From the IMG/VR virus record IMGVR_UViG_3300016466_000859, positions 1 to 64,000 of that record: a DNA stretch of 64,000 nt, one strand, 5' to 3'. The first letter of the stretch is position 1; every line of letters begins with the position of its first letter. Both the position numbers and the translations under genes were made by a program. The notes under the pieces were generated by a model. The model saw only the letters and a program-made list of their open reading frames with translations, was not told the origin of the DNA and ran no database searches. Below are positions 1,741 through 59,769 of this stretch, in pieces. This DNA comes from a virus.

Positions 1741-2475
1741 ATGAAAGTTGCAATAGTCACTCCCACCATTGGGTCAGAGAATCTCGAAAAATGCATCAAC
1801 AGCGTGCAGACTCAGATTTACACCGATGTCAAACACTATGTTTTCGTTGATGGGCATCAACATGAAGATCGAGTCAATGATATAATTAGCCGAGCACGCT
1901 TGTTTGACGTGCCGCTGGCTGTGTCGACGTTGGCCGAAAACGTCGGAGCAGGAGGTTGGTATGGACACAGAGTCTATGCCGCATGTTCATTTTTAGTCGA
2001 TGCCGATGTGATCTGCTATCTCGACGAGGACAATTGGTTCGAACCAAATCATGTGTTAGATCTCGTATCAACCATGGAAGAAAAAAGTCTCGATTGGGCT
2101 TATTCGTTACGCAAGATCATGGGCCCGTTGGGCAATGAAATCTGCAGGGACAACTGCGAAAGCCTAGGTCAGTGGCCCGCCTATGTGGGAGAAAATGTGT
2201 TTCATGTCGATACCTCTTGTTTCATGGTCAAGCGAGATATCGCCACTACTATTGGGCATGCGTGGTATTCACAGTGGGGTGCCGACCGTAGATTCTTTGC
2301 GGCATTGAAACAATACTTTCCCAAATTTGATACTTCAGGAACTTACAGCATGTGCTACCGTTTGGGTGGCAACGAAGGTTCAGTGCAAGAGGAATTTTTC
2401 CACCGTGGTAATAAAATCATGACCGAACGATATCCAGACAGTTTTCCTTGGGACCAGTCGGCGGTAGAATACTAA
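1741..2475 (+). CDS. Glycosyltransferase family 2
   Basis: MKVAIVTPTIG...CINSVQTQ...VFVDG N-terminus, YLDEDN DxD motif, VDTSCF, GADRRF. Confidence 0.8.
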   Translation: MKVAIVTPTIGSENLEKCINSVQTQIYTDVKHYVFVDGHQHEDRVNDIISRARLFDVPLAVSTLAENVGAGGWYGHRVYAACSFLVDADVICYLDEDNWFEPNHVLDLVSTMEEKSLDWAYSLRKIMGPLGNEICRDNCESLGQWPAYVGENVFHVDTSCFMVKRDIATTIGHAWYSQWGADRRFFAALKQYFPKFDTSGTYSMCYRLGGNEGSVQEEFFHRGNKIMTERYPDSFPWDQSAVEY

Positions 2476-2520: not shown

Positions 2521-2703
2521 TTATTTCTTGGCAGGTTCGGCTTTTTTCTCAGCTGGCTTGGCAGGGGCAGCGGCAGCAGGTTTAGCTTCCTCTTTCTTGG
2601 CAGGGGCAGCGGCAGCAGGTTTAGCTTCCTCTTTCTTGGCAGGTGCCTGAGCAAAAGCATTCACAGCAAACAAAGACGCAACAGCAAAGATAATCGATTT
2701 CAT
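2521..2703 (-). CDS. Small secreted Ala/Lys/Pro-rich protein
   Basis: Signal peptide MKSIIFAVASLFAVNAFA followed by repeats of PAKKEEAKPAAAA; SD AAGGA; TAAATA at 2758-2763 (-). Confidence 0.75.
   Translation of the reverse strand: MKSIIFAVASLFAVNAFAQAPAKKEEAKPAAAAPAKKEEAKPAAAAPAKPAEKKAEPAKK
2558..2643. repeat. 39-bp tandem repeat (2 full copies plus 8 bp) within the small secreted protein
   Basis: TTGGCAGGGGCAGCGGCAGCAGGTTTAGCTTCCTCTTTC at 2558 and 2597, then TTGGCAGG at 2636. Confidence 0.95.
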
Positions 2704-2783
2704 TTGGTTTTCCTTTAGTTGAAAAATTTACTATTTTGTTGGACGTCCCAACAATAATATTTAATCTGCGACCACTATCAGAA

Positions 2784-2815
2784 AAAAAGAATCGCCCCAA
2801 AAGGCGATTCTTTTT
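2784..2815 (-). terminator. Intrinsic terminator after pstS
   Basis: AAAAAGAATCGCC-CCAAAA-GGCGATTCTTTTT, a 13-bp stem with T/A tracts. Confidence 0.85.
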
Positions 2816-2841: not shown

Positions 2842-3855
2842 TTATTTCAAGTTAATTTGGCTCCACACCCGCTCACGGATCTGCTGTTGCAAGCTCACAG
2901 GCAGATGCACGTAATCCAGTTCGGCGCTCATTTTGGCACCATTGCGGAAAGCCCAGTCAAAGAACTTGAGGGCATCCTGGCTGGCTCGCTTGTCAGCAGG
3001 ATCTCGGTACATGATAATAAAACTAGCGGACGAAACGGGCCAAGCGTTGGGATTGCGTTGGTCCACGATTGAAAGTCCCATTCCCGGCACCGAGAACCAG
3101 TCAGCACCATCAGCAGCGGCCGCGAATGTGGTGTCATCGGGAGCAACAAACTTACCGCTCTTGTTCTGTAGCAACATGAAGTTCATATTGTTCTTTTTCA
3201 CATAAGCATATTCCACATAACCAATAGATCCTTTGATACGGTTCACATTGGCTGCTACACCTTCGTTGCCCTTGCCACCTACTGAACTGGCAGCAGGCCA
3301 CTTCACAGCGGCTCCACGACCCACACGATCGGCCCACTCCTTGCTCACAGTGGTCAGATAATCGGTCCAGTTGAAGGTAGTTCCCGATCCATCAGCGCGA
3401 TGTACCACCGTGATATTTTCGTCGGGCAACCGCTTGCCGGGATTCAAGGCCACAAGTTTTGGGTCATTCCATTTGACGATGTTGCCCATGAACACTTCGG
3501 CCAGCACAGGTCCGGTGATGCGAAGTTCGCCAGGACGGAAGCCATCGAGATTGACCACGGGCACGGTACCACCGATGATGGCTGGAAACTGCACCTGACC
3601 ATTTTGGTCTAGATCCGAACCTTTTACAGGTGCGTCAGACGCACCAAAAGTCACTGTCTTGGCATTGATTTGACGGATACCCCCGGAAGAGCCGATAGAT
3701 TGGTAGTTGAGTCCTATACCAGTTTCTTGCTTGTAGGCTTCAGCCCACTTGGCGTAGATAGGATAAGGAAATGTGGCTCCAGCACCAGTGATGGTCTGGG
3801 CCTGTGCTGTCACAGTCATGACAGCCAGGAAAAATGCTGTGATATACTTGATCAA
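2842..3855 (-). CDS. pstS: Phosphate ABC transporter periplasmic binding protein PstS
   Basis: Signal peptide, then ITGAGATFPYP, YQSIGSSGGI, FGASDAP, HRADGSGTT, GSIGYVEY. Probable TTG start at 3855 with AGGAG 8 nt upstream (ORF track extends to 3888). Confidence 0.95.
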   Translation of the reverse strand: MIKYITAFFLAVMTVTAQAQTITGAGATFPYPIYAKWAEAYKQETGIGLNYQSIGSSGGIRQINAKTVTFGASDAPVKGSDLDQNGQVQFPAIIGGTVPVVNLDGFRPGELRITGPVLAEVFMGNIVKWNDPKLVALNPGKRLPDENITVVHRADGSGTTFNWTDYLTTVSKEWADRVGRGAAVKWPAASSVGGKGNEGVAANVNRIKGSIGYVEYAYVKKNNMNFMLLQNKSGKFVAPDDTTFAAAADGADWFSVPGMGLSIVDQRNPNAWPVSSASFIIMYRDPADKRASQDALKFFDWAFRNGAKMSAELDYVHLPVSLQQQIRERVWSQINLK

Positions 3856-3901
3856 TTTAGAATCTCCTATTAGAAAGTGCGATCGCACTAGGAAATACTT
3901 A

Positions 3902-3930
3902 GTGACAATTATATTACAATATTATGACAC
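3902..3930 (-). promoter_or_regulatory. Pho box (three 11-bp-spaced PhoB half-sites) upstream of pstS
   Basis: - strand GTGTCAT-AATA-TTGTAAT-ATAA-TTGTCAC; matches the CTGTCA(T/C) plus AT-rich 4-mer consensus with exact 11-bp period. Confidence 0.85.
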
Positions 3931-3937
3931 CGCCGCG

Positions 3938-4933
3938 TCATACGACGGGCACGAGGTGGTCGCGGAAAATTTCCCAGGCCCGCTGCCATGACCAACGTTC
4001 ACTGCCTTGCCAGACTTTTCGGCGGTTCAAGGCAATGGCCTGCTGGGTAGCCTGCCAGAGATCCGCGTGCATCACGCCGGTCACCCCGGGATCTATCACG
4101 TCTAAAGGACCCGGAGCCGGGTAGGCCGCCACTGGGGTTCCGCAGGCCATGGCTTCGATCATGACCAGTCCAAAGGTTTCCCAACGACTGGGGAACACGA
4201 AAGCATCGGCCATCTGATAGTAGGCAGCGAGATCTCTGCCGGTCTGAAAGCCCACGAACTCCACGTCAGGATAACGCTGTTCGTAATCTCGTCGCATAGG
4301 TCCATCTCCCACCATGATCTTCCTGTAGCCCGGTGCAGGCATCTGGAAGAAATCTGCTAGATTCTTTTCTTCGCTCACTCTGCTCACACATACCAACACA
4401 CCAGTGCCGGCATGGCCCAGTCTGGGCGTAAACGTGTCACGATCCACTCCCCGCGTCCAACTCACTACTTCACCATCAAATCCCCGATCCTGTAGTTCTG
4501 CCACCATGGTGTTGGTAGTCGTGAGCACACGGCCCGCATGGCGATGGAACCAACGCACATAACTCCAGGTGATGGCTTCAGGCACACCTACCAACTGATG
4601 TATGGCTTCAGGGAAGCGAGTATGATAAGCAGTATTGTAGCGATAGCCACGTTTTGAAAGATATTTTCTAGCAAACAGACCCAGAGGACCCTCCGTGGCG
4701 ATGTGGATATGATCCGCACTAGCCTCCTCAATCTTCTGGCCCATCTCCCTGGGAATGGCAATCTTGAGTTCGTTGTAGCCAGGACAATCAAAGTAGCGGA
4801 ACTGCCCGGGATCAATGTAAACAATGCGATATCCCGCCAGAACCGCATGAGCCTCGATGTTTTTGTAGGTGGTGACCACGCCATTGATCTGCTCCGGTAG
4901 ATTGTCTGTGATGATCAGGATTTTTTTTCGCAT
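3938..4933 (-). CDS. Glycosyltransferase family 4, Agt-like (putative glycosyl-diacylglycerol synthase)
   Basis: KILIITDNLPEQINGVVTT, HIATEGPLG, YHTRFPE, WTRGVD, VSRVSEEKN, FPSRWETFGLVMIEAMACGTPV. Start at 4933 preferred over 4972; adjacent to a PlcP-like gene. Confidence 0.85.
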   Translation of the reverse strand: MRKKILIITDNLPEQINGVVTTYKNIEAHAVLAGYRIVYIDPGQFRYFDCPGYNELKIAIPREMGQKIEEASADHIHIATEGPLGLFARKYLSKRGYRYNTAYHTRFPEAIHQLVGVPEAITWSYVRWFHRHAGRVLTTTNTMVAELQDRGFDGEVVSWTRGVDRDTFTPRLGHAGTGVLVCVSRVSEEKNLADFFQMPAPGYRKIMVGDGPMRRDYEQRYPDVEFVGFQTGRDLAAYYQMADAFVFPSRWETFGLVMIEAMACGTPVAAYPAPGPLDVIDPGVTGVMHADLWQATQQAIALNRRKVWQGSERWSWQRAWEIFRDHLVPVV

Positions 4934-5091
4934 CTGGTCTGTATCTGGAATGATCGGAATTTCAGTTCCCATCTGATGCTACTCGCGGCCTGCTGGCAGG
5001 CTTCCAGACTGGGCATCTCTATCTCTACCCTGCCGGGTACGTCTCGTGGATCGTTCACGTGAACCGCTATTATTATCAGTAGCCACATCAT
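4915..5091 (-). CDS. Hidden 58-aa protein overlapping the plcP-like 3' end and the GT4 start
   Basis: MMWLLIIIAVHVNDPRDVPGRVEIEMPSLEACQQAASSIRWELKFRSFQIQTRCEKKS; AGGAG SD at 5096-5100; stop overlaps the GT4 start; below the ORF track's 60-aa cutoff. Confidence 0.65.
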   Translation of the reverse strand: MMWLLIIIAVHVNDPRDVPGRVEIEMPSLEACQQAASSIRWELKFRSFQIQTRCEKKS

Positions 5092-5845
5092 CTTTCTCCT
5101 GAGTCCAGGTCACTATTTCCCAACGACCGTCGTGATGCTCTACTAGAGCTGTCATAGACTCTACCCAGTCTCCGTCATTCATGTAACGGATTCCGTTGAT
5201 GTCTTTGATTTCTGCATGATGTATGTGCCCGCAGATCACTCCGTCAAAACCTCGCTTCTTGCAGTAAGCAGCGAGATTGTTTTCAAATTGGAATATAAAG
5301 TCCACGGCTTTTTTGACACGAGCTTTGAGATATCGGCTCAAGCTCCAATATCCAAATCCCATGCGATGTCTTAGCCAATTGAATTTGCTGTTGAGGCTCA
5401 GCACAAAATCATAGGCTTTGTCGCCCAAGAAACTCAACCAAGGTGCCAGTCTGGTGATGCCATCGAATAGGTCACCGTGGGTGACCAAATAGTGCTGACC
5501 ATCCACTCCCACATGCTCGCACTGGTTGACTATTTCTACCATGCCAAAGCCAATGCCGTAGGGCATGAGAAGCCTAAGAAACTCGTCGTGATTGCCAGCA
5601 ACATATATGACTCGGGTGCCGCGTTTGGCATGCCCTAGAATGCGACGTATCACATTAGTATGGCTTTGTTTCCAACGCCATTTGTTTTGTTGTATCTTCC
5701 AGGCATCAATGATGTCGCCCACAAGATAAAGAGTTTCACAGGTATTGTGTTTGAGAAAGTTGTTGAGTTGTTCAGCTTTACAGTCTTTGGTACCAAGATG
5801 CACATCTGAGATGAATATAGTGCGATAGGTTTTTTCTTGCGGCAT
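4979..5845 (-). CDS. plcP: LpxH-like metallophosphoesterase, probably phospholipase C PlcP
   Basis: ISDVHLG, LVGDIIDAW, GNHDE (His where LpxH has GNRD), HGDLFD, ICGHIHH, NDGDWVES; adjacent to an Agt-like GT4 and pstS. Confidence 0.75.
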   Translation of the reverse strand: MPQEKTYRTIFISDVHLGTKDCKAEQLNNFLKHNTCETLYLVGDIIDAWKIQQNKWRWKQSHTNVIRRILGHAKRGTRVIYVAGNHDEFLRLLMPYGIGFGMVEIVNQCEHVGVDGQHYLVTHGDLFDGITRLAPWLSFLGDKAYDFVLSLNSKFNWLRHRMGFGYWSLSRYLKARVKKAVDFIFQFENNLAAYCKKRGFDGVICGHIHHAEIKDINGIRYMNDGDWVESMTALVEHHDGRWEIVTWTQEKDDVATDNNSGSRERSTRRTRQGRDRDAQSGSLPAGRE

Positions 5846-5851
5846 AGCACA

Positions 5852-5857
5852 TATTTA
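5852..5857 (-). promoter_or_regulatory. Late-promoter core TAAATA 6 nt upstream of the plcP-like ATG
   Basis: + strand TATTTA; the same hexamer precedes many structural genes in this window. Confidence 0.5.
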
Positions 5858-5888
5858 AACGATTTCTAGCTTTTGAAAATAACTTATT

Positions 5889-5906
5889 ATGACTTTGATG
5901 TTACAA
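5889..5906 (-). promoter_or_regulatory. Weaker Pho-box-like site upstream of the plcP-like gene
   Basis: - strand TTGTAAC-ATCA-AAGTCAT; two half-sites at 11-bp spacing, each 5/7 to consensus. Confidence 0.45.
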
Positions 5907-5984: not shown

Positions 5985-6376
5985 AGTATCATCCAGATTA
6001 ATCAGCCACACTTTGCCCGTTGCCGGGCAAAAATGGTATGCATCATCCGAGTAGCACAACCACTTAGCGTTGGGACTATCAGCATCTCTGCTGGCGCAGG
6101 CGGTCATCCGGTACCTGCTCATCCCGTCTTTGTATGACGGCGGGCACTGCAACATACGCTAACACATCGCAGAGCCGTGTGAGTTTTGTTAATCTCACAT
6201 CCTTTAGCCTTGAATAAAGAACATTTGTCTTACAGCGAAACTGGTTGAAGAAGGCGTATCCAGTCATCGTCCTGCGAAGGATAGTCGCTGTATGCTCGCG
6301 GCGGCGGCGAGACTTCGGTCCCCGTGACCCAAAGGTCCGGTTGTCATCGGCACACGTATTTGGCCTGTGCTAGCCT
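5985..6376 (-). ncRNA. Unassigned large structured RNA (~390 nt) directly downstream of the GIY-YIG gene
   Basis: GC-rich intergenic stretch with about 10 helices, GNRA tetraloops and two candidate pseudoknots (see findings); no credible ORF; matches no tRNA, tmRNA, RNase P or group II intron signature I recognise. Confidence 0.7.
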
Positions 6377-6820
6377 TTACTCGCTGAGAGGAGCCTGGAG
6401 TTTGCCCTTGATGTGGGAGCCATGTACACGGACTTGGATGTGTCCGTTATAGTAGTCGTTGGATTCTAAGACTTGGTGTCGGAATTGTTCGCGTGCCTCG
6501 ATGTAGCTGCATTCGGCCTTTGACTTGCAGTAGAAGAGTATCTCTCTAGTGAAGTTTTCTGGGCCCAAAGCTTCCACATCTCGATTGAGTTCGTCGTTGC
6601 TGCCGTAATAAGTTTGCCAGTCGCTTTCGATTTTGCCTTTGATTTTCTTGCGTTTCTTTTTGCCGTTTTTGAGTTTTACAGTCTTGTAAGTGGTTCTTGA
6701 GAATTTTGCCAGTTTTTTACCAATGTATTTCCTGCCCGAAATCTTGTTCGTGATGAGATAAACGAAGCCTATGCAGTCGTCGGGCAAGGTTTCTATGGGT
6801 GAATTCTCGAAAAGCCACAT
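6377..6820 (-). CDS. GIY-YIG family endonuclease (short, T4 Seg/EndoII-like)
   Basis: GFVYLITNKISGRKYIGKK, DWQTYYGS, FTREIL, EAREQF...YYNG; basic insertion KNGKKKRKKIKGK. Confidence 0.8.
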   Translation of the reverse strand: MWLFENSPIETLPDDCIGFVYLITNKISGRKYIGKKLAKFSRTTYKTVKLKNGKKKRKKIKGKIESDWQTYYGSNDELNRDVEALGPENFTREILFYCKSKAECSYIEAREQFRHQVLESNDYYNGHIQVRVHGSHIKGKLQAPLSE

Positions 6821-6849: not shown

Positions 6850-7320
6850 TCAGAGGTTTTTTTCATAGATCCATCCGAGATTTTCTGTTTCGTGTATCCA
6901 CGTGTAGATGGGAAACTGCACAGGCAATACCCATAAACCGTTCCAACCCAGGTAGTTGCTTTGTATCGATGGTTCCAGCACAATGCCCTGTTGTTCGCAA
7001 GTTTTTTGATAATCTTTAGGATACCTGGGCCAATATCTGGCCTGATGCATAAAACTATCAAAACTCATCTCTTCGAATGCCACGCTTTCAACAACGACGG
7101 CCTTGTCGAGGTTTTTTTCTACCACAGTGTCGTGGTCGTACTTGTTGTAAAACTCTACTATTAGCCTATGCACTCCTGCAGCACCAACAACACGGAAAGT
7201 TTTGTTGTGGGAATGATCTAGTGCGCCACGAAACAAAACCTGGCTGTCCCAGCTTATTTCAATCTCGGGACAATCGTCCCAGAACACCGGCTTCAATGAG
7301 ATATCAATGACGGTATCCAT
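6850..7320 (-). CDS. Hypothetical protein
   Basis: 156-aa ORF coupled to the upstream radical SAM gene; YLGWNGLW...PIYTWIH C-terminus. Confidence 0.65.
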   Translation of the reverse strand: MDTVIDISLKPVFWDDCPEIEISWDSQVLFRGALDHSHNKTFRVVGAAGVHRLIVEFYNKYDHDTVVEKNLDKAVVVESVAFEEMSFDSFMHQARYWPRYPKDYQKTCEQQGIVLEPSIQSNYLGWNGLWVLPVQFPIYTWIHETENLGWIYEKNL

Positions 7321-8611
7321 ATATCCTTAACCAATCTGTTGCTTCGGGTATGAAATCTTTGATGCTCTTGTTGTATAACTCATCCTGCTCGCTGAGTCGG
7401 GCTGCCATTTCCCGCCGTAGCATGTCGACGTCGCCGGGCTCGGCTTTCCGAAGATGACGTATCAAAGATTCTGCTTCGTTTTTCAGAGTTATTTCCACAT
7501 TGTTGGGATTTTTGGTATTGTTAAACTTTTCTCCTTTGACCACAATTGAATCAGCAAAATCTTGCAAATGTCTGATTGTAAATTCTTTGAGATTGACGGG
7601 CAAGAGATCTGACAGCATCCATCGAGGTCTATTTGGATAACTGGCATCAATGGGTATCCTGCGATCAAGTGCGTGTTGCAACAGTGTGTGGTATCTTAAC
7701 ACACTCAAAGCAGTGGGCACGGTGCGGAAAGTCCACTGCACCCGTGGCATAGATTCTCGCATGTGATCTACATTGCGTAAAATCTGCATGATGTCGGCGC
7801 CTTGTCTAAGATAGTCGTTGGCACGATCAGCAGTCTCTATACTGACTCCGATCTCCACACGATTAAATGTTTCGAGCTGTGCGCGATATTTGCTGTAATC
7901 TATGCTGCCATTGGTGGTAAAAGATAGATTAAGCCAAGACATTTTTTTATCAGCAAACATCCTCAATAGGTCACGGAAACTTTCGATCAATTCAGGCTCG
8001 CCTCCGATAATGTGCACCACACGCACATATTGATAGTTGGTGTCAAACCAGTCAACGAATCTTTGCCAGGCCACCGGATCTTGAGTCCATGTCTCTAACC
8101 GATAATCGTTTGCGATCCATCCCATCTTTCTTTGATCTTGTGCCACGCGACTGGAGGCTTCGGGCGGACAGAATTTACAGCTGAAATTACATGTGGTTCC
8201 GATGTTGAGGTGCAGGCTAGCGATGCGAGTAACTGTTTCTCCATCGTGGCCGCGGCTGTGATCAAAATACTGCTTGTGCGGACTTTGCTCGAAACTACGA
8301 TCGAATTTTTTGTGAAAGATCACAGATTTGAGATTTTCTTTTTGTCTCGCTGAAGTATAACCGGCTGCGTCTTTCATCTGGCACATGCGGCACATGGAAT
8401 CAACCGTGTCGCCCAATTTAATCAATCGCTTTTCACGCATCCTGGTACTGTTCCAGTAGTCGTCGATGCCGATTTTTTTGATATTCCACTCGCGACCCAG
8501 TTCGGTCATTATGATCTTGTCGTTTTGGCACCCACAGAGATCATAGCTGCCATCATGATTGATGTTGAGCTCAAACCAAGGTATGTTGCAGAATATGTCT
8601 TTATTGGCCAT
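7304..8611 (-). CDS. Radical SAM protein with N-terminal Twitch-like domain
   Basis: CNFSCKFC, IIGGEPEL, FTTNGS; N-terminal FCNIPWFEL...DLCGC...CRMC. Confidence 0.9.
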   Translation of the reverse strand: MANKDIFCNIPWFELNINHDGSYDLCGCQNDKIIMTELGREWNIKKIGIDDYWNSTRMREKRLIKLGDTVDSMCRMCQMKDAAGYTSARQKENLKSVIFHKKFDRSFEQSPHKQYFDHSRGHDGETVTRIASLHLNIGTTCNFSCKFCPPEASSRVAQDQRKMGWIANDYRLETWTQDPVAWQRFVDWFDTNYQYVRVVHIIGGEPELIESFRDLLRMFADKKMSWLNLSFTTNGSIDYSKYRAQLETFNRVEIGVSIETADRANDYLRQGADIMQILRNVDHMRESMPRVQWTFRTVPTALSVLRYHTLLQHALDRRIPIDASYPNRPRWMLSDLLPVNLKEFTIRHLQDFADSIVVKGEKFNNTKNPNNVEITLKNEAESLIRHLRKAEPGDVDMLRREMAARLSEQDELYNKSIKDFIPEATDWLRIYGYRH

Positions 8612-9584
8612 GCTTACATTTAAATCGGCATATGTCAGGAGGAAACATTTCCCATCTCATTTTCAGTTCTTGCCAGCAGGCATCGGCCAGCACAGCATCG
8701 AATCCTCGCTCTCGCACGTTGATGGTGTCGTGATACTTTTTCAAGAAATCGTTTTCCATGTAGCCGGATCCAAACCAAGCACAAGGAAAGAAACGCCCAT
8801 CCACACTGACAAAAGGCATCTGTGTACCGTTGAGGCACTTGGCCCAGTGATTGGTGTCTCGGATCGCCGGTGGAAAAGTATACCCACGGTGTAATTTAAC
8901 CACAAATTTTGAGTAGCTTTTTTCTTCTTTGTAGTCGCCCGGATCCAATGGATCGAACCCATCGGGATCCAAGTATCTGGGATCGTTGCTGCCAAATTTC
9001 ATGCTTTTTACGATGTCAAATTGATCAACACCCAAGGTTCGGGCAACACCTTTTATTTCTTCGAGTTTATGCATGTTGAACCTAAAAACAATGGTGCTCC
9101 AGCGCAGGTTCACATCGCTGTGTTTTTTTAGAATTTTGATACCCGAGACAATGGAATCCCAATCGCTGTTGACGCGATATATCCTATTGCTGTCGTGATC
9201 CCATCCATCTACACTGAATGTCACCCGATCGCGTTGGTCCAAGTTACTGCCAAGACGTTGCCACCAATTGGTGTCTTTGTAGCTGCCGTTGGTGACGATG
9301 TTGATTTGAGTGGTTTTAGATGTTTGTTTGATATATTCGATGATTTCTAGAAAATCTCTAGCATAGATAGGATCGCCGATATCACCGCAGAAACTCAAGT
9401 ATTTGATCTGCGACAAGATTTCTTGAGTGAACAGGTGCTGGAATTCGTTGAGACTGTAGTCTCGATTGATGTATGGATGATTCTCTGGCATTTCGGTGCG
9501 AGGACATCTAGGACATTTGAGCACACATTTAGAACTCAGCTCCACATGCAAATGCGTAAGGTCAAACACCAATGACCTCGACAT
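8601..9584 (-). CDS. Radical SAM protein with C-terminal Twitch/SPASM-like domain
   Basis: CVLKCPRC, FCGDIGDPIY, IVTNGS, FSVDG; C-terminal KCLNG...DGRFFPCAW...CRFKC. Start at 9584 or TTG 9572. Confidence 0.88.
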   Translation of the reverse strand: MSRSLVFDLTHLHVELSSKCVLKCPRCPRTEMPENHPYINRDYSLNEFQHLFTQEILSQIKYLSFCGDIGDPIYARDFLEIIEYIKQTSKTTQINIVTNGSYKDTNWWQRLGSNLDQRDRVTFSVDGWDHDSNRIYRVNSDWDSIVSGIKILKKHSDVNLRWSTIVFRFNMHKLEEIKGVARTLGVDQFDIVKSMKFGSNDPRYLDPDGFDPLDPGDYKEEKSYSKFVVKLHRGYTFPPAIRDTNHWAKCLNGTQMPFVSVDGRFFPCAWFGSGYMENDFLKKYHDTINVRERGFDAVLADACWQELKMRWEMFPPDICRFKCKHGQ

Positions 9585-11337
9585 CAGTGTTGTAGGTAGT
9601 GAAACCGTTTTCTTTGACCACATGCATGATGTTGTTGACACGTCCAGCCAATTCGTCTTTGTGAGACACTAACCATATGCTGCGATTCATGTCGCGGCTC
9701 ATTTTCTTGAGTATGGCCAAGGCGTTTTCCACGCCCGATGCATCCATGCCCGAGTCTACTAGCTCGTCAATGAATAGGAGATTAATAGGCTGGTAGAGCC
9801 CTTCCCAGACATCGCGGAATGCCCAGCTCAAGGAAAGTATCAATCTATTTCTTTCGCCGCGGCTGAGATTGTCAAAGTCCAGATCTCGGCCTAGCTCGGT
9901 GATTTCCACGGTGAGATCGTTTTGGAATTTCACTGTGTGCGGCAACCCAATACGGTCTAGATAGTAGCCAAGTCGCTGATTTAGATAAGCAAGATTCTGA
10001 TCGATGATGCGTTTGCGAACAAACGAATCTTTATTGGTCAACAGTTTTAACAGAAACTCCTGGTGGTCTTTGACACGTGATAGTTCATTGATGACATCAT
10101 AGCTGATCTCGCCCTTGGCAGCTTCGCTCATTTCTTCGATTTGTTCTCCGTAGGGATCTTGCTCGTTGCTTCGCGTGGCAAGATTGTTTTTGAGAGTATC
10201 CAGGGTATTGCGATGATTGAGTGCATCTTCTAGAGTATCGTAGAACACCTGCGGCGGATGACGCAAATCACCTAACTCTAATAATGCGGCCTTGATGGTT
10301 TTGATTTCATCGGTGATGGTCAGTGATTGCTGTTGTGATTCTGTCAGCGACGATTGCTTTTCTTTTAATATTTCATCTTGCTTGGCGTCGTGCAAATCCT
10401 GCCCACAGGCATAGCAACGATGTTCTCTGAGAGACGCGATTTCTTTTTCCAGTTTTGCTGCCAACTTGTTGAGACGATCTAAATCAGATTCGCCTTGCCG
10501 CTGGGCCTTGGCTAGATCTCCGCGGACTTTTTGTTCTTCGTTGAAAGCCGCGAGATCTCTGTGTGACTGAATTTCAGCATCAATGTCGATCTTTTCCAAT
10601 TCTGAAATTCCAGTCTGCATCTTGTCGCAGTCTTCATCGCGTTTGGCAACCCATAAACGCTGTCGTTTGCGCAAGCTCTCAATCTGCTCTTCGATCTTGG
10701 CGTTGGCTTCTTGTACCGCTCTGATGCGCATCTCTTCTTGTGCAATGGCATCTTTGGTGATCTTGATCTGCTCTTTGAGACTGTCGGCCTTTTCAGACAG
10801 CAAGGTAATGCCCAAGAGTTGCTCGATGATATTTCTTTGATCATTGGCTCTAAGCGCCAAGAACGGCTCGGTATAGGTGTTGAGAGCGACCACATGTTTG
10901 AACATTTCGTGCTCCATGCCCAGCATTCTTTCGATGTGGGCTTGGGTTTCTCGGCTGTCTCCCTGTGCGTCGTCGGTGATTTCCTGTTCGTTGCCGGCCA
11001 CCCAAAATTTCATGACGTTGGGTTTGCGCCCTCGTTCGATGCGATACTCAATTCCGTCCTTTTCAAACTCGATGGTGACTAACAGATTTTTACCATTGGT
11101 TTTGTTGATGAGATTGTCTTTTTTAATGTTGGTCAAGGCATTGCCGTAGAGAGCATAGCTCAAGGCATTGATGATGGTGGTTTTGCCTGTGCCGTTTCTC
11201 GCACCCGAATCGTCGCCACCTAGGTCTAAATTTTCGCCCAGAACCAACGTGAGATCTCTGCGATCAAAGTTTACTGCCTGCGTGGCATTGCCCACGCTCA
11301 TGAAGTTTTTTACAGACAGAGTTTTAATTTTGAACAT
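9562..11337 (-). CDS. gp46: Recombination endonuclease ATPase subunit (Rad50/SbcC-like, T4 gp46)
   Basis: KNFMSVGN, Walker A ARNGTGKT, coiled coil with CYAC zinc hook, LSRGE signature, FIDELVD, SH. Confidence 0.95.
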   Translation of the reverse strand: MFKIKTLSVKNFMSVGNATQAVNFDRRDLTLVLGENLDLGGDDSGARNGTGKTTIINALSYALYGNALTNIKKDNLINKTNGKNLLVTIEFEKDGIEYRIERGRKPNVMKFWVAGNEQEITDDAQGDSRETQAHIERMLGMEHEMFKHVVALNTYTEPFLALRANDQRNIIEQLLGITLLSEKADSLKEQIKITKDAIAQEEMRIRAVQEANAKIEEQIESLRKRQRLWVAKRDEDCDKMQTGISELEKIDIDAEIQSHRDLAAFNEEQKVRGDLAKAQRQGESDLDRLNKLAAKLEKEIASLREHRCYACGQDLHDAKQDEILKEKQSSLTESQQQSLTITDEIKTIKAALLELGDLRHPPQVFYDTLEDALNHRNTLDTLKNNLATRSNEQDPYGEQIEEMSEAAKGEISYDVINELSRVKDHQEFLLKLLTNKDSFVRKRIIDQNLAYLNQRLGYYLDRIGLPHTVKFQNDLTVEITELGRDLDFDNLSRGERNRLILSLSWAFRDVWEGLYQPINLLFIDELVDSGMDASGVENALAILKKMSRDMNRSIWLVSHKDELAGRVNNIMHVVKENGFTTYNTDVEVIGV

Positions 11338-11350
11338 GATCTATGATATT

Positions 11351-12949
11351 TTACACTAATCCCAGGGCTTGTGCGACCTCAGGATGCGCTGCGGAGAAAT
11401 CTTCTCCCCGCAGGTCATCTAGCTTTTTGATGTAATTGACAAACAAAGGATTGTCTGGTTGAGTGGCCGAATCCAATAAACCAATCACGGTGTCAATGAA
11501 TGGTTGTACCGCGGCATCGAACGTATGGTTGAGCAGTTTCTTTGCAGCGAGATCTGCGGCAGCCTTGGGAATTCTCAACAACGAAAGATGATCGGGATTA
11601 TAAAGCACACTGAAATGCAAATCTTCAAACTCGATTTCTTTGATCCAATCGCAGAGTTCGGGCAAATAATACACGTTCATGATGCTGATCACACATTGTA
11701 GATTTAAAATGGTATTTTCGTGTTTGTGAGCTTTGATATATTTCACGTTCTTTTCAATGACGTTCCAATCTGCTTTGTCACCGGGCCTTTGTATATTGAA
11801 TCGTTGTCCGATGTCGTCGATGCTGATGGCCAAATCTATCTTTTTAAAATGTTTCCATAGTTCCAATAGTCTGTCATTGATAATAGATCCATTGGTATTG
11901 TAGTGTATAGAGATATCCCCGGCAACACCGCGTTCTACCAAGGACTCAAGAGCACGAAGGTGATTTTTATCCAGTAAGGGTTCCCCACCAGCAAAATCAA
12001 AGTATTTCATCTGCGAATTTTCACCAACATTGGTCCATAACTGTTGACTATCATGAACCCATTTGCCTTTTTCTAATGCATCCCATGTTGAACTGCTTTT
12101 TCTCTGCGACATCGGAATCTGTTGCAAGATCTCTCCGGCAATTTTGCTGCTGCTTTTTGCCGAACAAATACGGCATTTGAAATTGCAGACATTGCCAAAA
12201 GACACAGACAGCATCTTGAGATTTTTTACATCGTCCTCTTCCCAGTTAATGGCCCGGCTGTCGTCACCGAACCGCAAAGCATACAATTGGCGTTTGCTGA
12301 CAGTGCCGCTTTCTTCTTCTTTCCAGCATCTCGAACAAGATTGTAATTTAGTTCCTTGACGGAAATGCTGTCGCAGAGTCTTCATGTATCGACTGTTATA
12401 GACATCTTCTAAGGAATCAACAGCGGGATCAAACAATGTGCCGTCTTCACGTGTCACTGCACCTTGATAAAAACAACACGGAGCAAATGTGCCCACTGGG
12501 CTGATATCTAGAGAATTCCACGGCAACGGACAAACTGTATCGGGCATACCAAATGCAGCCTTACTCTGTGTGATTTCCACAGGCTTCCAGTGGTCACCGT
12601 CGGAGTCGCTGTCAACGATGACAGTGGGTTCCGAATCATGTTTTACTTTGTTGTATGACTGTGCAACGATATCAACTTCTCGTGTACTTGGTACCACCAG
12701 CACCACAAAAAAATTTGGAATGTCAATGACTTTCAGCTGTCGATAAAAATCAAGAAAAAAATCTTCCAAGAGCTTTTCGTTGATCTGATCTCTGAGATAA
12801 AATACCAATCTTTCGTGATCTTGGTATTCTTCGCGTTTCAATGAACGTAGATTTAAATAAAAATCTCCCCAAGACATGTCAAAATATTCTGCAATGTCCC
12901 GACAGGAAATAACCGAATACTTTTCGTGTAATGTGTCCAATGCTGTCAT
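11351..12949 (-). CDS. Radical SAM protein with Twitch-like domain and extra N-terminal domain
   Basis: VCPLPW...APCC...CSRCW, CNFKCRIC, FAGGEPLL, YNTNGS; about 130 additional N-terminal aa. Confidence 0.9.
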   Translation of the reverse strand: MTALDTLHEKYSVISCRDIAEYFDMSWGDFYLNLRSLKREEYQDHERLVFYLRDQINEKLLEDFFLDFYRQLKVIDIPNFFVVLVVPSTREVDIVAQSYNKVKHDSEPTVIVDSDSDGDHWKPVEITQSKAAFGMPDTVCPLPWNSLDISPVGTFAPCCFYQGAVTREDGTLFDPAVDSLEDVYNSRYMKTLRQHFRQGTKLQSCSRCWKEEESGTVSKRQLYALRFGDDSRAINWEEDDVKNLKMLSVSFGNVCNFKCRICSAKSSSKIAGEILQQIPMSQRKSSSTWDALEKGKWVHDSQQLWTNVGENSQMKYFDFAGGEPLLDKNHLRALESLVERGVAGDISIHYNTNGSIINDRLLELWKHFKKIDLAISIDDIGQRFNIQRPGDKADWNVIEKNVKYIKAHKHENTILNLQCVISIMNVYYLPELCDWIKEIEFEDLHFSVLYNPDHLSLLRIPKAAADLAAKKLLNHTFDAAVQPFIDTVIGLLDSATQPDNPLFVNYIKKLDDLRGEDFSAAHPEVAQALGLV

Positions 12950-25221: not shown

Positions 25222-28200
25222 ATGGCCACTACTAGAACGTTGAACTTTTTACCTGAGATTTTCAGGACCGACGCCAACAAAAAATTCTTGGCCGCCACCG
25301 TTGATCAATTGATCAGCGAACCAAATTTCAAGAAAATTAATGGCTACATTGGCCGTCGCGTTACACCCACATTTAAACCATCAGACAATTACATCAGCGA
25401 ACCTTCGGCTTCGCGGCAGAATTACCAGCTCGAGCCCTGCGTTGTTGTCAAGGACGCTTATGCCAACAGCGTTGATTTCTTTTCTTCATATCCTGATCTA
25501 CTACAAAAAATTGAATACTATGGTGGGATCGCCAATAACCACGATCGTTTGTTCCGCAACGAATTTTATACATTTGATGGGTGTTTTGACTTTGACAAGT
25601 TTATTAATTTCAACAACTATTACTGGATGCCCAATGGTCCTCAGGCTGTGAATGTATTTGCTGGTTCAGTTGACAATGAAGGAGAATACCAGGTCACACG
25701 CAATCTGTCTGTTGGTGGATTTAATTTTTCCGGCAAAGGAATCGAATCTAATCCTGTCATGATATTGAGTCGTGGAGGAACATATAGATTCCAGATAGAT
25801 CATCCAGAACATCGTTTCTGGATACAAAGTGAGCCAGGAATATCGGGCAAGAAAAAAACTCAACCTAATATTTCAACAAGAGATGTATTAGGGGTTTTAA
25901 ACAATGGCACAGATCAAGGAACAGTGACTTTCCGAGTGCCGCAGGCATCTGCTCAAGATAAGTTCACATCGATGACTATGGCCGCGGTGGCCGATCTTGC
26001 CACCGATATCAGTTACGTGGACCTACAGGACCACAGTCTAAGAGAATTTCTTAAAAACAATCCCGACGGCATCGACGGCTATCGAACTCCTTCTGACTTA
26101 GAAGGAAAATTTATAATATTCATCAATGAAGACATCGATGATGTGTTCTGGACCAACGATGAGATTTTTGATGTATATCCTTACGATGTCATTGTTTCTG
26201 AAACTGTTCCGGCGACAGCAAGACGTAATCTCTGGAGAATACAGTTAATTCCCAGCGGAAGAGATCATGTCATTAAGTTAACTCCATCAACCACAGTTGA
26301 AAAAAATCAAAAAGTTTTTGTTCGACGTGGCAAGGAAAATGCATCCAGAGAATTCTACACTGACTTTGATGGAATCTATCGAACCGTTCCCAACATCACA
26401 GCCAATTTGGATCGGCTTTTTTACCAAGACAGCCGAGACCCGTCTTTTGTTGGCGAAATACGCATAGTTGATCCTGATAATTTTGTCATTGATGTCAACA
26501 ATGACATTCTGGGCGAAAAAAATTATACCAGCCCCAATGGGGTAGAATTTACCAATGGTTTGAAAATAAGATTTGACAACAAAGTGATACCATCTGATTA
26601 TCGACTCAAAGAATTTTATGTCGAGGGTGTTGGTAAATCTATCAGACTCATTGAAACAAGCAAACTCATAAATCCCGAACCATATGCAAGTGATTTGGAG
26701 TCTCTGGATTACCTCACAATCAATCGTGGAAGCCAAGATCTCAATGCATGGTCACGCAGCAATCGTTGGTTCCACATTGACGTACTAAAAGCAACAGCCG
26801 CGTACAACAAAACCATTGGATTGCCCGATCAACAATATCGTGCCAATCGGCCTATCATTGAGTTTGACGCAGATCTACAATTATTTAATTTTGGTCGGCA
26901 AGGTCTACCACCCGTAGATTACCTAGATTTTTACGTCACCGATGCTTTTTCACAGATCGAAGGAAATGGCAAACAATACGATGCACTACAGCATTATGTC
27001 AAAGACGAAGTCGTGGTTCTCGAAAATAAAGTTTATCGGGCTCGAATCGATCTGCAGCAAATACCAGGCAACGACAGCAACTGGCAAAATCTCTATAATC
27101 TTCCTATTTACAGTGGAACACAGGCATATCGTCAAGACAATGTGGTAAGATACCTTGATCGTATCTATCGCGCTTTGACCGTGACCAGTGAAAATCTTCC
27201 TACCGATACCACTTATTGGGAACCCATAATATGGAATCGCGAAAACATCGATGAATTTGATGCGGAGATCGAATATCAGCAATTTGATGCGGTCTACTAC
27301 AACAACGAGTACTACGCCTGCATCTCTCCCAATGGGGCTTTGCAAATATCTCCTGACATTACCACCACCTGGAAAAAAGTCGATGTCTTTGTGGATTATT
27401 CAGAGAACATAGCCGATACGATATTGGAAAATCAGTATGCAGCCTGGCAAGGTAGATTATATCGGGCCGTGATGGACATCAAACAAGATCCTAGAAATAA
27501 CGATCTTTACTGGCAAAATATCATTGACATTGTTGATGGAAAATCCGTGATATTCGCCGGCGATGAAGATCCCACAGTGCGCAATACTGTTTATCGGTTA
27601 AGTATGGAGGACATTGGCAACGACGAGGACAGCGACGGAAATCCGATTCGTGTGCCGCATCTCACACCCAGCGAATTTACCGTGGAATCAAACAGTACGG
27701 TCATTGTGTTAGAAGGACTTAATGCCGGATTGAATTTCTGGTATGATGGCAATCAATGGAAACAAGGTCCGCAAAAATCTTCAGTGAACCAGGCACCATT
27801 GTTTGATGTTGTTGACGAAAATAACATCAGCTTTGGAAACCTAACCAGATACCCCAATTCAACCTTCGGCGGATCACGTATTTTTTCATATAAAACCGGC
27901 ACAGGAAAAATAGACAATGTGTTGGGCTTCCCATTGAGCTATCGAAATTTCAACAGCGTGGGAGATATAGAATTCAGCAACGATTTTGATAATTCGTCAA
28001 TGTCTTTCCTTGATGGCACACGAGAAAAAACAGTCAAGATCAACAGCGGTTATCTATTGAACTACATCGATCGCGAAGAGGCACAAACTAGAAATATCTG
28101 GGTCAAAGCCAAGGAAAAATCTCATCAGTACCAGATTTTTTCTCATGTGTTTGATGGCACAACCAATTATTTTGAAGTTGATATAGCCCCCAATGCCAGT

Positions 28201-31200
28201 CAGCAAACGCCGTTTATCAAGGTATTCATCAACAATGAACTAATCAAAGAATATCAATATGTCTATGAGGTAGTTGGCGCACGACAGGCCGTGCGTGTGC
28301 TTTCGTCTTTGCTGACCAATGGCGCCATAGTTGATATAATGATCTATTCTGACTCAACGTCGGAACTCGGCTATTACGAAGTGCCGATAAATTTAGACTA
28401 TAATTCTCAGAATTCTGATTTTGAGTATCTCACTCTGGGACAGCTAAAAAATCACATTACCAAGTTGGTTGAGAACACCAGGATCGCAAACCAAACAGAA
28501 GCTAAGTTTACTGGGTTCCGTGATGTGCAATTTAAAAATCACGGTGGAACCATATTACAGCATGCCAGCCCATCGATCTACAGTAACCTATTTCTAATCG
28601 ATAACGATGTCAATTTCATTGACAGTATCGACCTGGCAGCACGCGAGTACACAAAATTTAAAAATAAGTTTTTAGAAGCCGCCAACAAATTAACAACAGT
28701 TGACTTGAACAGAATTCCAGAAACTGTTGACGAAATAATCAAAACCATCAATGCTGTCAAGAATAGCTCGTTCCCGTGGCATTATTCGGACATGGTTCCT
28801 TACGGAGACAATCGCAGAGAATATCTAGATGTTGTAATCAATCCCGAGCTAAGGCAATTTGATTTACCAATGGTGTTCAATGACCAAGAGCTCAGCAATC
28901 GTGCGGTATTGGTGTATGTCAATAACAAGCAATTGGTCAAAGATCGAGACTATTATTTTCCACAAGATCGAACTGCTGTAATCATCAGTGAGGAGTACCC
29001 TCTTGAAGCCGATGATCAAATTAAAATAGTCGACTATCTTGACACCAATGGATGCTACGTTCCTGAGACTCCAAGCAAGCTAGGATTATATCCTAAATTT
29101 GTTCCTGGTAAATTGTATGACAGTACATATAGAGATCCAATATTTGTGATACAAGGCCATGACGGTTCACTGATTCCGTCGTTTGAGGATTATCGAGATG
29201 ATCTTCTCGTTGAGCTCGAGACTCGCATCTATAACAATATCAAACTCGACTATTATAAAGGTATTGCTAACATACATGATTTTATTCCAGGGAAATTCCG
29301 TGACACGGGATATACATTGACTGAATTTGATCGTGTGCTTTCTCGCAGTTTCTTGAAATGGGCCGGAAGCAATCAAGTTGATTATACCACGAACAAGAAT
29401 TTTGTTGCCAACGATCCCTGGACATGGAACTATTCAAAATATCGAGATACCATTGACGGAGGTAGAATACCCGGAGCATGGCGAGCTATTTTCAAGTATT
29501 TTTATGATACCGATCGCCCCAACACTCATCCTTGGGAGATGCTGGGATTTAGTTCACGACCAGACTGGTGGAACGAACGCTATGGCGCCGCACCCTACAC
29601 TGGCGGCAACTTGCTGTTATGGCAGGACCTCGCACAGGGATATATCCATGCTGGTCCACGGCAAGGTTATGATCAGAGATACGCGAGACCTTCTCTGCTG
29701 TCAATCATTCCAGTAGACGAATATGGTGCACTGAGATCACCTAGCCAATTTGCAGTCAGCAATTTCAATAGCAGCGATGCTGGTCGGGCGTTTTCGGTTG
29801 GCAATCAAGGTCCTGCCGAATCGGCCTGGAGGCGCAGCAGCGATTACCCGTTTGCCCTACAGCGCACCATGGCCCTTACACAACCAGCTTTTTATTTTGG
29901 TAGCCTATTTGACGTCAAAACATATAATCGAAACAACAAATTAGATCAGCTGGTTATTTCTGACACCCTAAGGCGTGTGACTCCATCGTCGATTAAAATA
30001 CACGGCGAAGTCGTTGATGGTCAAACTCAACTCACTGCCGGCTATCTAAATTGGATACGAGATTATGTAAAAAATCTCGGGCGAGACCCAGCGACGGTAT
30101 TGCGCCATAGATTTGATAATCTCGACGTGAGTTTAGGTTATCGAGTGGCCGGGTATACTGATAAAAATTACGTCAAGGTGCTGGCCGAACAAAGTTCGCC
30201 GTCATCGACCAACGATAGTATCATTGTACCCGATGAAAATTACACCGTACATCTTAATAAATCTAGCCCGCTGAAAAAAATAATCTATAGTGCAGTCATT
30301 GTTGAGAAAACCAACAATGGATACACGGTATCGGGCTACGATGTATCCAATCCTTATTTCACTATCATTCCGAGTCTAGCCAACAATAACGCCTATGTAG
30401 TTGACGTGATCAAACAAAGAGGAGTGATATATCGGGATTACCAAAATAAAAAAGTAATCGTCCCTTATGGATTTGAATTTACTTCACGACAGCAAGTGGT
30501 AGATTTCTTAATCAGTTACGGAAGATATCTCACTGGACAAGGAATTAAATTCACAGAAACCGATTCGGTGTTGTCCGCTAAAAAAGATTGGGTCCTTAGT
30601 GTCAAAGAATTTTTGCACTGGAGTCAGCAAGGATGGAGCAATGGTAACCTGATCATCTTGAGTCCAATCAAAGATGTTCTCAAAGTCAGCACACCCCTGG
30701 GTGTGGTTGACCATGTAGAAAACACCATCAACGGTAGTAAAATACTAGATCAGCAGTTTTCTACCATTAAGAATAATCAATTCACGGTAGTAAGATCCAA
30801 TAACGAATTTAAAATTTCTGTCATTGATGATCGTTCAATATGCTTTGCTGAACTCGAAGTGGTACAGTTTGAGCATGTGTTGATATTTGACAACAGCACC
30901 GTGTTCAATGACATCATTTATAAGCCTGAGCTAGGAAATCGGCAGTTCCGTTTGAAATTGGTAGGCAGCAAAACCAATGACTGGTCCGGTGAGCTTAACC
31001 CCCCGGGATTTGTTTACAATGCGTCAGATGTTGATCCTTGGTTGCCCGGTAAAGATTACAAAAAAGGTTCGATAGTAAACTTTAAAGAACAATATTATAC
31101 GGCGTTGGAAAATATCATAGCCGCGACAGAATTCAATCAGGCCCAATGGAGGCTGATTGAAAGATCTGCAATCAAGACCGGTCTTCTTCCCAACTTTGCT

Positions 31201-59218: not shown

Positions 59219-59769
59219 TATTGGTAAATGGTGACAGCTTCACAGCCGGCGAAGAAAGCACCGTGGCATGGCCAGACCTTGTTGCTGATACAGTAAATAT
59301 AGCTACACCAGGAGCCGGCAACGATCATATAGTTTCCAGCACGATCGTACATATTGAAACTTATGGGAACATCGATCGTGCTATAATAGCTTGGACTACT
59401 CCACATCGCATAACAGTCAGTGGAAAGCATCTCACTCCCACTAGCCAAAAAAAATATGGTAAGCTAGTCGACGAAGTGTTTTGCGATTGGGATGAATCGT
59501 GGGCTTGGCGACAGTTTCATGCTTCTGTGGCAGCATTGCATGGTTATCTTGAGCACAAAAGAATACCACATTTCTTTGTGAGCACGTTTGGCATACCAGC
59601 TAATACCATCCGCGAATGTATATATTGGATGGAGTGGGGCACCGAAGGTATGATAGAATGGATGGGCGACTGCCCAAAAGGTCCCGGTGGGCACCCGCTG
59701 GAACTTGGACATCAACGAATAGCAGGAAAAATCAATGAGTATATTAGGAGTATCGGCTGGGTTTCATGA
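59215..59769 (+). CDS. SGNH/GDSL-like protein
   Basis: VNGDSFTAG, ATPGAGND, GGHPLELGH. Confidence 0.6.
   Translation: MILVNGDSFTAGEESTVAWPDLVADTVNIATPGAGNDHIVSSTIVHIETYGNIDRAIIAWTTPHRITVSGKHLTPTSQKKYGKLVDEVFCDWDESWAWRQFHASVAALHGYLEHKRIPHFFVSTFGIPANTIRECIYWMEWGTEGMIEWMGDCPKGPGGHPLELGHQRIAGKINEYIRSIGWVS

Follow-up and report, generated by a model that had tools for sequence, protein, structure and literature searches.

RESULTS AND DISCUSSION

A probable lipid-renovation operon joined to pstS in a very large phage

We analysed a window of 64 kb (the whole stretch of 64,000 nucleotides), which is the first 64 kb of the 130,947-bp IMG/VR virus contig IMGVR_UViG_3300016466_000859. On its minus strand lie, in this order, a plcP-like metallophosphoesterase gene, an open reading frame (ORF) of 58 aa, an overlapping agt-like gene for a GT4 glycosyltransferase, and pstS. 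Judged from their sequences, these genes quite probably constitute a phage-borne form of the proteobacterial phosphorus (P)-starvation lipid-renovation operon joined to a phosphate-uptake gene. A sequence-only reading of this DNA had described three co-oriented genes for a metallophosphoesterase with a GNHD motif, a GT4 and PstS, and each of them is present as an ORF on the minus strand at the coordinates given below. By sequence comparison the family placement of the esterase and transferase pair is firm; the enzyme activities, the control by PhoB and the purpose of P supply are what we infer.

The proposed course of events is as follows. In a P-starved host, host PhoB~P would bind the 11-bp-phased repeats that precede plcP and pstS. 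The PlcP-like enzyme, to judge by its family, would remove the phospho-head group from host glycerophospholipids and leave diacylglycerol (DAG). The Agt-clade GT4 would glycosylate this DAG to a P-free glycolipid, and the membrane would hold until lysis. The freed phospho-head groups would enter host metabolism and could feed the synthesis of a very large phage genome. Secreted PstS would boost phosphate capture by the PstCAB transporter of the host, as is established for cyanophage pstS. The 58-aa membrane protein, found only in phages, would be a probable third component.

The esterase is a paralogue distinct from LpxH

The plcP-like gene (4979–5845, minus strand) encodes a 288-aa protein with the Pfam domain Metallophos and the motifs DVH / GD..D / GNHD / HGD / GHIHH. 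Its conserved core spans approximately residues 1–250 and is followed by a low-complexity tail that the 58-aa ORF overlaps. Seven metal ligands (D14, H16, D44, N85, H123, H207 and H209) are invariant in an alignment of 29 homologues, and they match D8, H10, D41, N79, H114, H195 and H197 of PaLpxH (PMC5016852). By sequence, LpxH is the sole solved relative of the esterase (phmmer E = 2e-4). In an AlphaFold model (pLDDT 81, with values <50 in the tail) the 25 best PDB matches are likewise all LpxH, at 17–21% identity. In the model, residues 126–198 form a helical insertion in addition to the catalytic core. This insertion is rich in aromatic residues, and one of that kind has also been described for the non-LpxH paralogue PaLpxH2 (PMC5016852). 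As modelled, the protein has an LpxH-like fold with a lipid-binding helical cap and is a paralogue distinct from LpxH.

An alternative reading of the pair starts from this resemblance. The esterase would be an LpxH-type UDP-2,3-diacylglucosamine hydrolase and the GT4 a transferase of the lipopolysaccharide (LPS) core, so that host lipid A or LPS is modified. LpxH is the nearest solved fold, with which the esterase shares the seven metal ligands and a helical lipid-binding insertion, and public sources name its homologues LpxH. This is true of the annotation of two cultured phages, Mosig and S-SRM01, and of the atlas clusters of the esterase family, which are mostly viral. Viral catalogues of auxiliary metabolic genes (AMGs) also file lpxH under LPS biosynthesis; viral "lpxH" is listed as an LPS gene in viral metatranscriptomes from Lake Baikal and in viromes from the Mediterranean. 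However, the esterase scores far under the cut-offs of both LpxH equivalog models (49.2 bits versus 134 for NF003743 and 37.8 versus 190 for TIGR01854). Its identity to solved LpxH is low, as given above, and its aromatic-rich insertion domain is a different one. Two gammaproteobacterial genomes (G002 and G005) encode a true LpxH (249 and 290 bits) together with a separate homologue of the esterase (40–45 bits) beside a GT4 gene. Three alphaproteobacterial genomes that we tested carry the homologue and no LpxH above cut-off, and a homologue of 33–60% identity occurs in 108 of 301 sampled genomes of the class of the alphaproteobacterium Hirschia litorea. The unpublished genome G245 is one of these 108, and none of our conclusions depend on it. 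The GT4, for its part, is very distant from WaaG and WaaB. A tree against LpxH, which the sequence-only reading had proposed as a check on its view that the enzyme is PlcP-like rather than LpxH, sets the whole family apart on a very long branch. From the model scores, the coexistence with true LpxH in the same genomes and the length of this branch, we rejected the identification of the esterase as LpxH, in agreement with that view. We regard the LPS alternative as a whole as highly improbable.

The esterase is 43–62% identical to its bacterial homologues, and characterised PlcPs are 46–51% identical among themselves (PMC9239053). Between the window and other phage copies dN of the core is 0.08–0.14 and dN/dS is ~0.04–0.05, with synonymous sites saturated. 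From its family membership the phage enzyme is predicted to be of the Mn type and to cleave phospholipid head groups, with DAG as the product.

The GT4 belongs with Agt and carries a catalytic Glu

The agt-like gene (3938–4972, minus strand) encodes 344 aa with the Pfam domains PF13439 (Glyco_transf_4) and PF00534 (Glycos_transf_1); its probable real start is Met14 at 4933. The modelled protein has a GT-B fold (pLDDT 91.7), and the top-matching folds are the retaining GT4s BshA, MshA and PimB'. The Agt/GTcp clade is marked by the motifs GRVAxEKN (containing Arg190 and Lys195 of GTcp) and FPSxTDTFG, by a His104-Asp256 dyad in which Asp takes the place of the Glu usual in GT4s, and by the DAG-binding residues Thr162, Arg163 and Trp320 (PMC8231724). 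In the bacterial loci that we fetched, GT4s located 3' of the esterase carry GRVAVEKN and FPSxTDTFG. The first motif reads SRVSEEKN in the window GT4; its first Gly is replaced by Ser, as in most phage copies, and R198, E202 and K203 are invariant. The second reads FPSRWETFG, in which the motif Asp has become Glu and the Thr has become Trp, with T, F, G and the later Glu retained. The catalytic His is present as the invariant His90 in HIATEGP, and the DAG-binding residues as T173-R174 in TRGVD (R174 invariant) and as the invariant W329.

In a tree rooted on E. coli WaaG and WaaB, all GT4s encoded next to plcP fall on one side (SH-aLRT 98), and those of phages make up a single clade (SH-aLRT 99) nested among them. 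The change from Asp to Glu arose once within the phage clade, where basal copies keep Asp, and the derived, diversified Trp-Glu subclade makes up 27 rows of the tree including the window. Three GT4s encoded beside plcP in bacteria show the same change. The window GT4 is 35–43% identical to bacterial members of the clade. This range equals that among characterised Agts (35–43%; PMC9239053), and the clade is <25% identical to other GT4s (PMC8231724). The description of this protein as an Agt-like GT4 in the sequence-only reading therefore stands as regards clade placement and most motif residues, and not as regards the clade-specific catalytic Asp, which is Glu here. With dN/dS of agt at 0.10–0.20, the Glu form is under purifying selection and is therefore likely active on sequence grounds, and its rate or sugar preference may differ.

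A phage-only ORF and a choice of transferase downstream of the esterase

At least 599 IMG/VR contigs, some of them 207–525 kb long, encode an esterase 75–87% identical to that of the window. The counts for phage loci given here and below refer to the best 80 of these. In all but two of them (78/80) the small ORF that in the window overlaps plcP at the 3' end and agt at the 5' end (4915–5091, minus strand) is present at 42–75% identity by tblastn. It encodes 58 aa with an N-terminal hydrophobic helix and two conserved Cys, and it sits over the low-confidence tail of the esterase. It is not among the genes that the sequence-only reading assigned to the module. We found no Pfam or NCBIfam match to it, and tblastn detected no copy in those bacterial loci that fall outside the phage clade. 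We regard it as a probable third component of the proposed lipid machinery.

The gene after the esterase encodes a GT4 in 35 of the 80 loci. In 41 (L012:6601–7320 and 40 other viral loci) it encodes an unrelated GT2-family transferase of 239 aa that matches GT21 weakly, and the 58-aa ORF is retained with either transferase. The regular pairing of the esterase with one glycosyltransferase or the other fits a DAG product that needs glycosylation. PstS is encoded within 6 kb in 10 of the 80 loci, and 5 loci combine the esterase with both GT4 and PstS. For the best 80 loci, these figures give the co-occurrence in phage genomes that the sequence-only reading had suggested counting. Locus L015 has a gene order identical to that of the window, with a GT4 that is 87% and a PstS that is 72% identical. 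The phage clades are monophyletic for the esterase and for the GT4. Other neighbours that recur in the related phages encode a fatty-acid desaturase, a DUF454 protein, a GDSL-lipase-like protein, an alpha/beta-hydrolase-like protein and a peroxiredoxin. Across the 131 kb of the present contig we found no fatty-acid desaturase.

PstS

The pstS gene (2842–3855, minus strand) encodes a periplasmic phosphate-binding protein of 337 aa starting from TTG. The longest ORF, 2842–3888, begins with GTG at 3888. The true start is probably the TTG at 3855, which is preceded by AGGAG and yields a predicted signal peptide, a hydrophobic N-terminus ending AQA|Q. The protein scores above the equivalog cut-offs of NF008171 (384 bits; cut-off 339) and TIGR00975 (363 bits; cut-off 205) and belongs to phrog_5385. 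Its identity to native PstS of Polynucleobacter is 59–61% in five of six genomes and 55% in the sixth. Like plcP and agt, pstS is under strong purifying selection (dN/dS ≤0.05–0.2 for the three genes). A hairpin followed by a T-run lies directly 3' of pstS (2782–2815, minus strand); it was identified by eye and does not appear in a consensus scan, and it is likely the end of the transcription unit.

Phased repeats upstream of plcP and pstS

Pho-box-like sites at both heads of the module were another element of the sequence-only reading, and both sites were recovered. The 49 nt that separate agt from pstS contain three 11-bp-phased half-sites, TGTCAT-N5-TGTAAT-N5-TGTCAC (3902–3929, minus strand), which give two exact overlapping matches to TGTMAY-N5-TGTMAY. 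Approximately 44–60 nt upstream of the plcP start (5889–5905, minus strand) is the direct repeat TGTAAC-N5-AGTCAT, which has the 11-bp phase and one mismatch. A TAAATA box that resembles the -10 element of T4 late promoters is located 7–12 nt upstream of the plcP ATG (5852–5857, minus strand). TAAATA is the core of T4-type late promoters.

We scanned both strands of the 80 related phage loci (1.69 Mb) for exact TGTMAY-N5-TGTMAY and obtained 64 repeats. Of the 80 loci, 41 have at least one within 150 nt upstream of plcP, and 7 of the 10 loci with pstS have at least one ahead of that gene. Only 14 of the 64 are found elsewhere, and three of those represent miscalled esterase starts. The exact repeat is ~300-fold enriched upstream of plcP and pstS. 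None was found upstream of agt in the phage loci, which is what an operon would lead one to expect. When 39 distinct related promoters are anchored on the repeat, their consensus shows a conserved TAAATA downstream of the repeat and shortly before the start codon, at a distance of 11–12 nt from the repeat in most promoters and ~22 nt in a subset. In Polynucleobacter as many as four phased half-sites resembling TGTCAT stand ahead of native plcP, and TGTCAT-N5-CGTCAT stands ahead of native pstS; plcP-agt1 of P. aeruginosa has an upstream Pho box, with the consensus CTGTCAT-N4-CTGTCAT. From these comparisons we infer that the phage sites are PhoB sites grafted onto a late promoter.

Several points weigh against a PhoB-controlled operon for P supply. 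Within the window alone the motif is not more frequent than expected by chance (7 occurrences at ≤1 mismatch versus 5.8 expected), so that its significance derives from the related loci, and it is the site before the window plcP that carries the mismatch. The phage repeats are mostly TGTAAT, not TGTCAT, and stand upstream of a T4-late-type TAAATA; the repeat could serve a phage regulator, or expression could simply be late. As to the enzymes, the D256E substitution lowers GTcp activity by >90% (PMC8231724). PlcP yields phospho-head groups, not free phosphate, the release of which calls for another phosphatase or pathway of the host. Finally, the link of the phage PlcP and Agt to characterised members is made by motifs, synteny and identity ranges, not by a direct tree.

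The points on regulation can be stated as an explanation in its own right, namely that the repeats are bound by a phage-encoded regulator or form the upstream part of some T4-type late promoters, and that the genes are expressed late regardless of phosphate. The phage consensus TGTAAT/TGTAAC and its position upstream of a conserved TAAATA accord with this explanation. The phage also encodes a gp55-type late sigma, which is not known to contact PhoB. On the other hand, the repeat is almost wholly confined to plcP and pstS, two canonical genes of the Pho regulon. Some phage copies, and the window pstS site, are exact TGTCAT/TGTCAC, and the repeats are identical in spacing and phase to the native Pho boxes of Polynucleobacter and P. 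aeruginosa. Moreover, cyanophage pstS is reported to be under PhoB control (Zeng and Chisholm 2012). Expression without PhoB is in our judgement rather unlikely.

A few other genes in the related phages are also preceded by the repeat (L025:5104–5842, L058:3315–4047, L070:5708–6371, L041:7908–8868 and L028:4016–4518). They encode a 194–232-aa protein starting MRLE.LAARL, a second metallophosphoesterase and a secreted protein, and may likewise belong to a phage Pho regulon. In Polynucleobacter chromosomes (L183–L188) an exact TGTAAT-N5-TGTCAT heads a divergent gene ~900 nt upstream of native plcP, on the opposite strand. Native pstS of Polynucleobacter is located ~17–23 kb from the native plcP-agt operon.

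Relatives of the module in bacteria and in cultured phages

In bacteria the esterase gene is directly followed by a gene for this type of GT4 in 15/80 loci, in 6/6 small alphaproteobacterial genomes and in 7/7 Polynucleobacter genomes; in the seven Polynucleobacter genomes examined the plcP-agt pair with its Pho boxes is native. Within the genus of genome G307 (Polynucleobacter), 75 of 81 genomes match the esterase query, most of them with a full-length native copy at 48–54% identity. In a host of this genus the phage genes would therefore supplement, or stand in for, an existing function during infection.

Recent capture of the phage gene from Polynucleobacter was considered and rejected, because the phage PlcP is 48–54% identical to the native Polynucleobacter enzymes versus 55–62% to those of Hyphomonadaceae. 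Copies of 71–82% identity occur in metagenome-assembled genomes (MAGs) assigned to Haliscomenobacter, Polynucleobacter, Fischerella, Bacteroidia and Gammaproteobacteria. A bacterial origin of these copies was rejected, as the tree places them within the phage clade, and in two cases the phage-only 58-aa ORF is present as well. The Polynucleobacter MAG has the phage-like copy on a 6-kb contig in addition to a native copy at 53% identity, and the phage-like copy is absent from the other 80 genomes of the genus. These MAG contigs (L084–L089) are probably mis-binned phage DNA.

Homologous esterases are also encoded by two cultured T4-like phages. In Pelagibacter phage Mosig EXVC030M the gene Mosig_00120 encodes a 49% identical esterase and stands head to head with the pstS of that phage; Synechococcus phage S-SRM01 encodes one of 37% identity. 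In contrast to the module described here, neither has a GT4 gene after the esterase, and both esterases are annotated as LpxH ('UDP-2,3-diacylglucosamine diphosphatase'). The Mosig esterase, in addition, groups with other bacteria than the freshwater phage clade does. The announcement of the Mosig genome does not discuss the esterase gene.

The module in relation to known systems

PlcP-Agt operons have been described in S. meliloti (SMc00171), Phaeobacter MED193, SAR11 HTCC7211 (PlcP/GTcp), P. aeruginosa (PA3219-PA3218), B. cenocepacia (BCAL2364-2365) and M. trichosporium OB3b. They resemble the phage module in having the gene of an LpxH-like metallophosphoesterase (of the Mn type, as is predicted for the phage enzyme) followed directly by that of an Agt-clade GT4, with a Pho box, or in the phage a Pho-box-like repeat, upstream (PMC8231724, PMC9239053, PMC13691135). 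The motifs are common to both, and the range of identity between phage and bacterial proteins equals that between characterised members. The phage version differs in its location in a T4-like phage and in its overprinted 58-aa ORF, catalytic Glu and TAAATA box. It also differs in that it is co-oriented with pstS and has no dagK, and half of the related phages have a GT2 in place of the GT4. Burkholderia belongs to the same family as Polynucleobacter. In Burkholderia, plcP-agt-dagK is needed for the formation of MGDG and GADG (PMC13691135).

Known P-stress genes of phages, such as cyanophage pstS and phoA with their Pho boxes and the published pstS of pelagimyophages (PMC12379486), resemble the present case in the host-type PstS with a signal peptide, the Pho-box-type site upstream and the occurrence in a T4-like myovirus of a nutrient-poor water body. 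They differ in that pstS is coupled here to a membrane-lipid pathway, which goes beyond uptake or an external phosphatase, and in that the host is probably a freshwater betaproteobacterium. We found no description of a phage PlcP-Agt system in the literature on phage or viral PlcP, on pelagimyophage phosphate and lipid genes, or on phage lipid remodelling. This agrees with the sequence-only reading, which knew of no such characterised phage system.

To our knowledge, the P-stress genes described in phages serve uptake or the use of external organic P (pstS, phoA) or have no known role (phoH). If the interpretation as a lipid-renovation operon is correct, a route that frees P from the host's own membrane would represent a new class of AMG. 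A genome of ~350 kb needs much P per virion, and phospholipids are a sizeable pool of cell P. AMG surveys that file this esterase family as "lpxH" under LPS synthesis would be misreading it. The finding would also bear on the use of glycolipid-to-phospholipid ratios as markers of P stress in lakes and oceans, and on interactions between phages and host surfaces.

The same biochemistry could instead benefit the phage through a changed envelope (phage exclusion, receptors, membrane stability or lysis timing) and not through P supply. In bacteria, lipid remodelling alters the protein content of the membrane as well as grazing and the attachment of phages (PMC9804370, PMC9938194, PMC9457565). A phage-only membrane protein is built into the operon, and desaturase, GDSL-lipase and alpha/beta-hydrolase genes stand beside the pair in related phages. 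The linkage of the pair to pstS and the starvation-type repeat common to both nevertheless point to P economy. We consider an envelope benefit in place of P supply quite unlikely, and the two benefits are compatible. A more far-reaching version of the lipid-renovation reading holds that in large freshwater phages a phage-adapted three-part machine (PlcP, the 58-aa protein and a GT4 or GT2) under a hybrid PhoB/late promoter turns, late in the infection of P-starved cells, a sizeable part of host membrane P into virion DNA and rewrites surface lipids, and so drives shifts from phospholipid to glycolipid in P-poor waters. This is possible, and on balance we regard it as doubtful.

Host and genomic setting

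The source of the DNA is a very large freshwater T4-like myovirus. CheckV estimates the contig as 37% complete, which implies a genome of ~350 kb. The contigs with the module derive from samples of P-limited lakes. The module is bounded on one side by a T4 baseplate gene (677–1498) and on the other by a gp46/gp47 block, and the whole is phage genome. T4-type genes in the window include gp47 and gp46 (SbcCD-like), the gp55-type late sigma, gp5 and gp6 of the baseplate, and tail-fibre genes. A blastn search of the region against a phage collection gave weak matches to pstS and nothing else.

The host is probably a freshwater betaproteobacterium, for which the evidence is a Polynucleobacter-1 RNA, the type of tmRNA in related phages, the identity of PstS to that of Polynucleobacter, and the G+C content of the window (~46%). 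The Polynucleobacter-1 RNA (Rfam RF01718, 99 bits) is encoded at 6230–6375 on the minus strand, ~385 nt upstream of plcP, and it occupies an equivalent place in L005 (5450–5595). Those who described the motif found it in Burkholderiales and in freshwater and estuarine settings. Its presence hints at a Burkholderiales host, or at a motif that is itself phage-borne. The tmRNAs encoded in related phage loci are of the betaproteobacterial type or permuted (L015:3918–4242, L054:488–876, L012:3983–4451 and L021:3837–4131). These tmRNA genes, and also arrays of ~20 tRNA genes (L010:7422–10920), are located within a few kb of plcP in the related phages.

A gene for a SegE-like GIY-YIG homing endonuclease (6377–6820, minus strand) directly precedes the RNA and the module, and the enzyme could transfer the module among T4-like phages. 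Just downstream of pstS is a gene for a small secreted protein (2521–2718, minus strand), which consists of a signal peptide followed by PAKKEEAKPAAAA repeats and has its own terminator at 2479–2502. Convergent with the module is a gene for a GT2-family glycosyltransferase (1741–2475, plus strand). Its product was considered as the equivalent of the GT2 that replaces Agt in other phages and was rejected in that role, the two being unrelated. A PhoH gene is located on the same contig outside the window (128434–129060). Three ORFs with radical-SAM domains (7304–8611, 8601–9641 and 11351–12949, all minus strand) are interspersed with the gp46/gp47 recombination nuclease genes. A Nol-like carbamoyltransferase is encoded at 59735–61264, and the baseplate and tail-fibre region contains a single ORF of 4,543 aa (25222–38853, plus strand).

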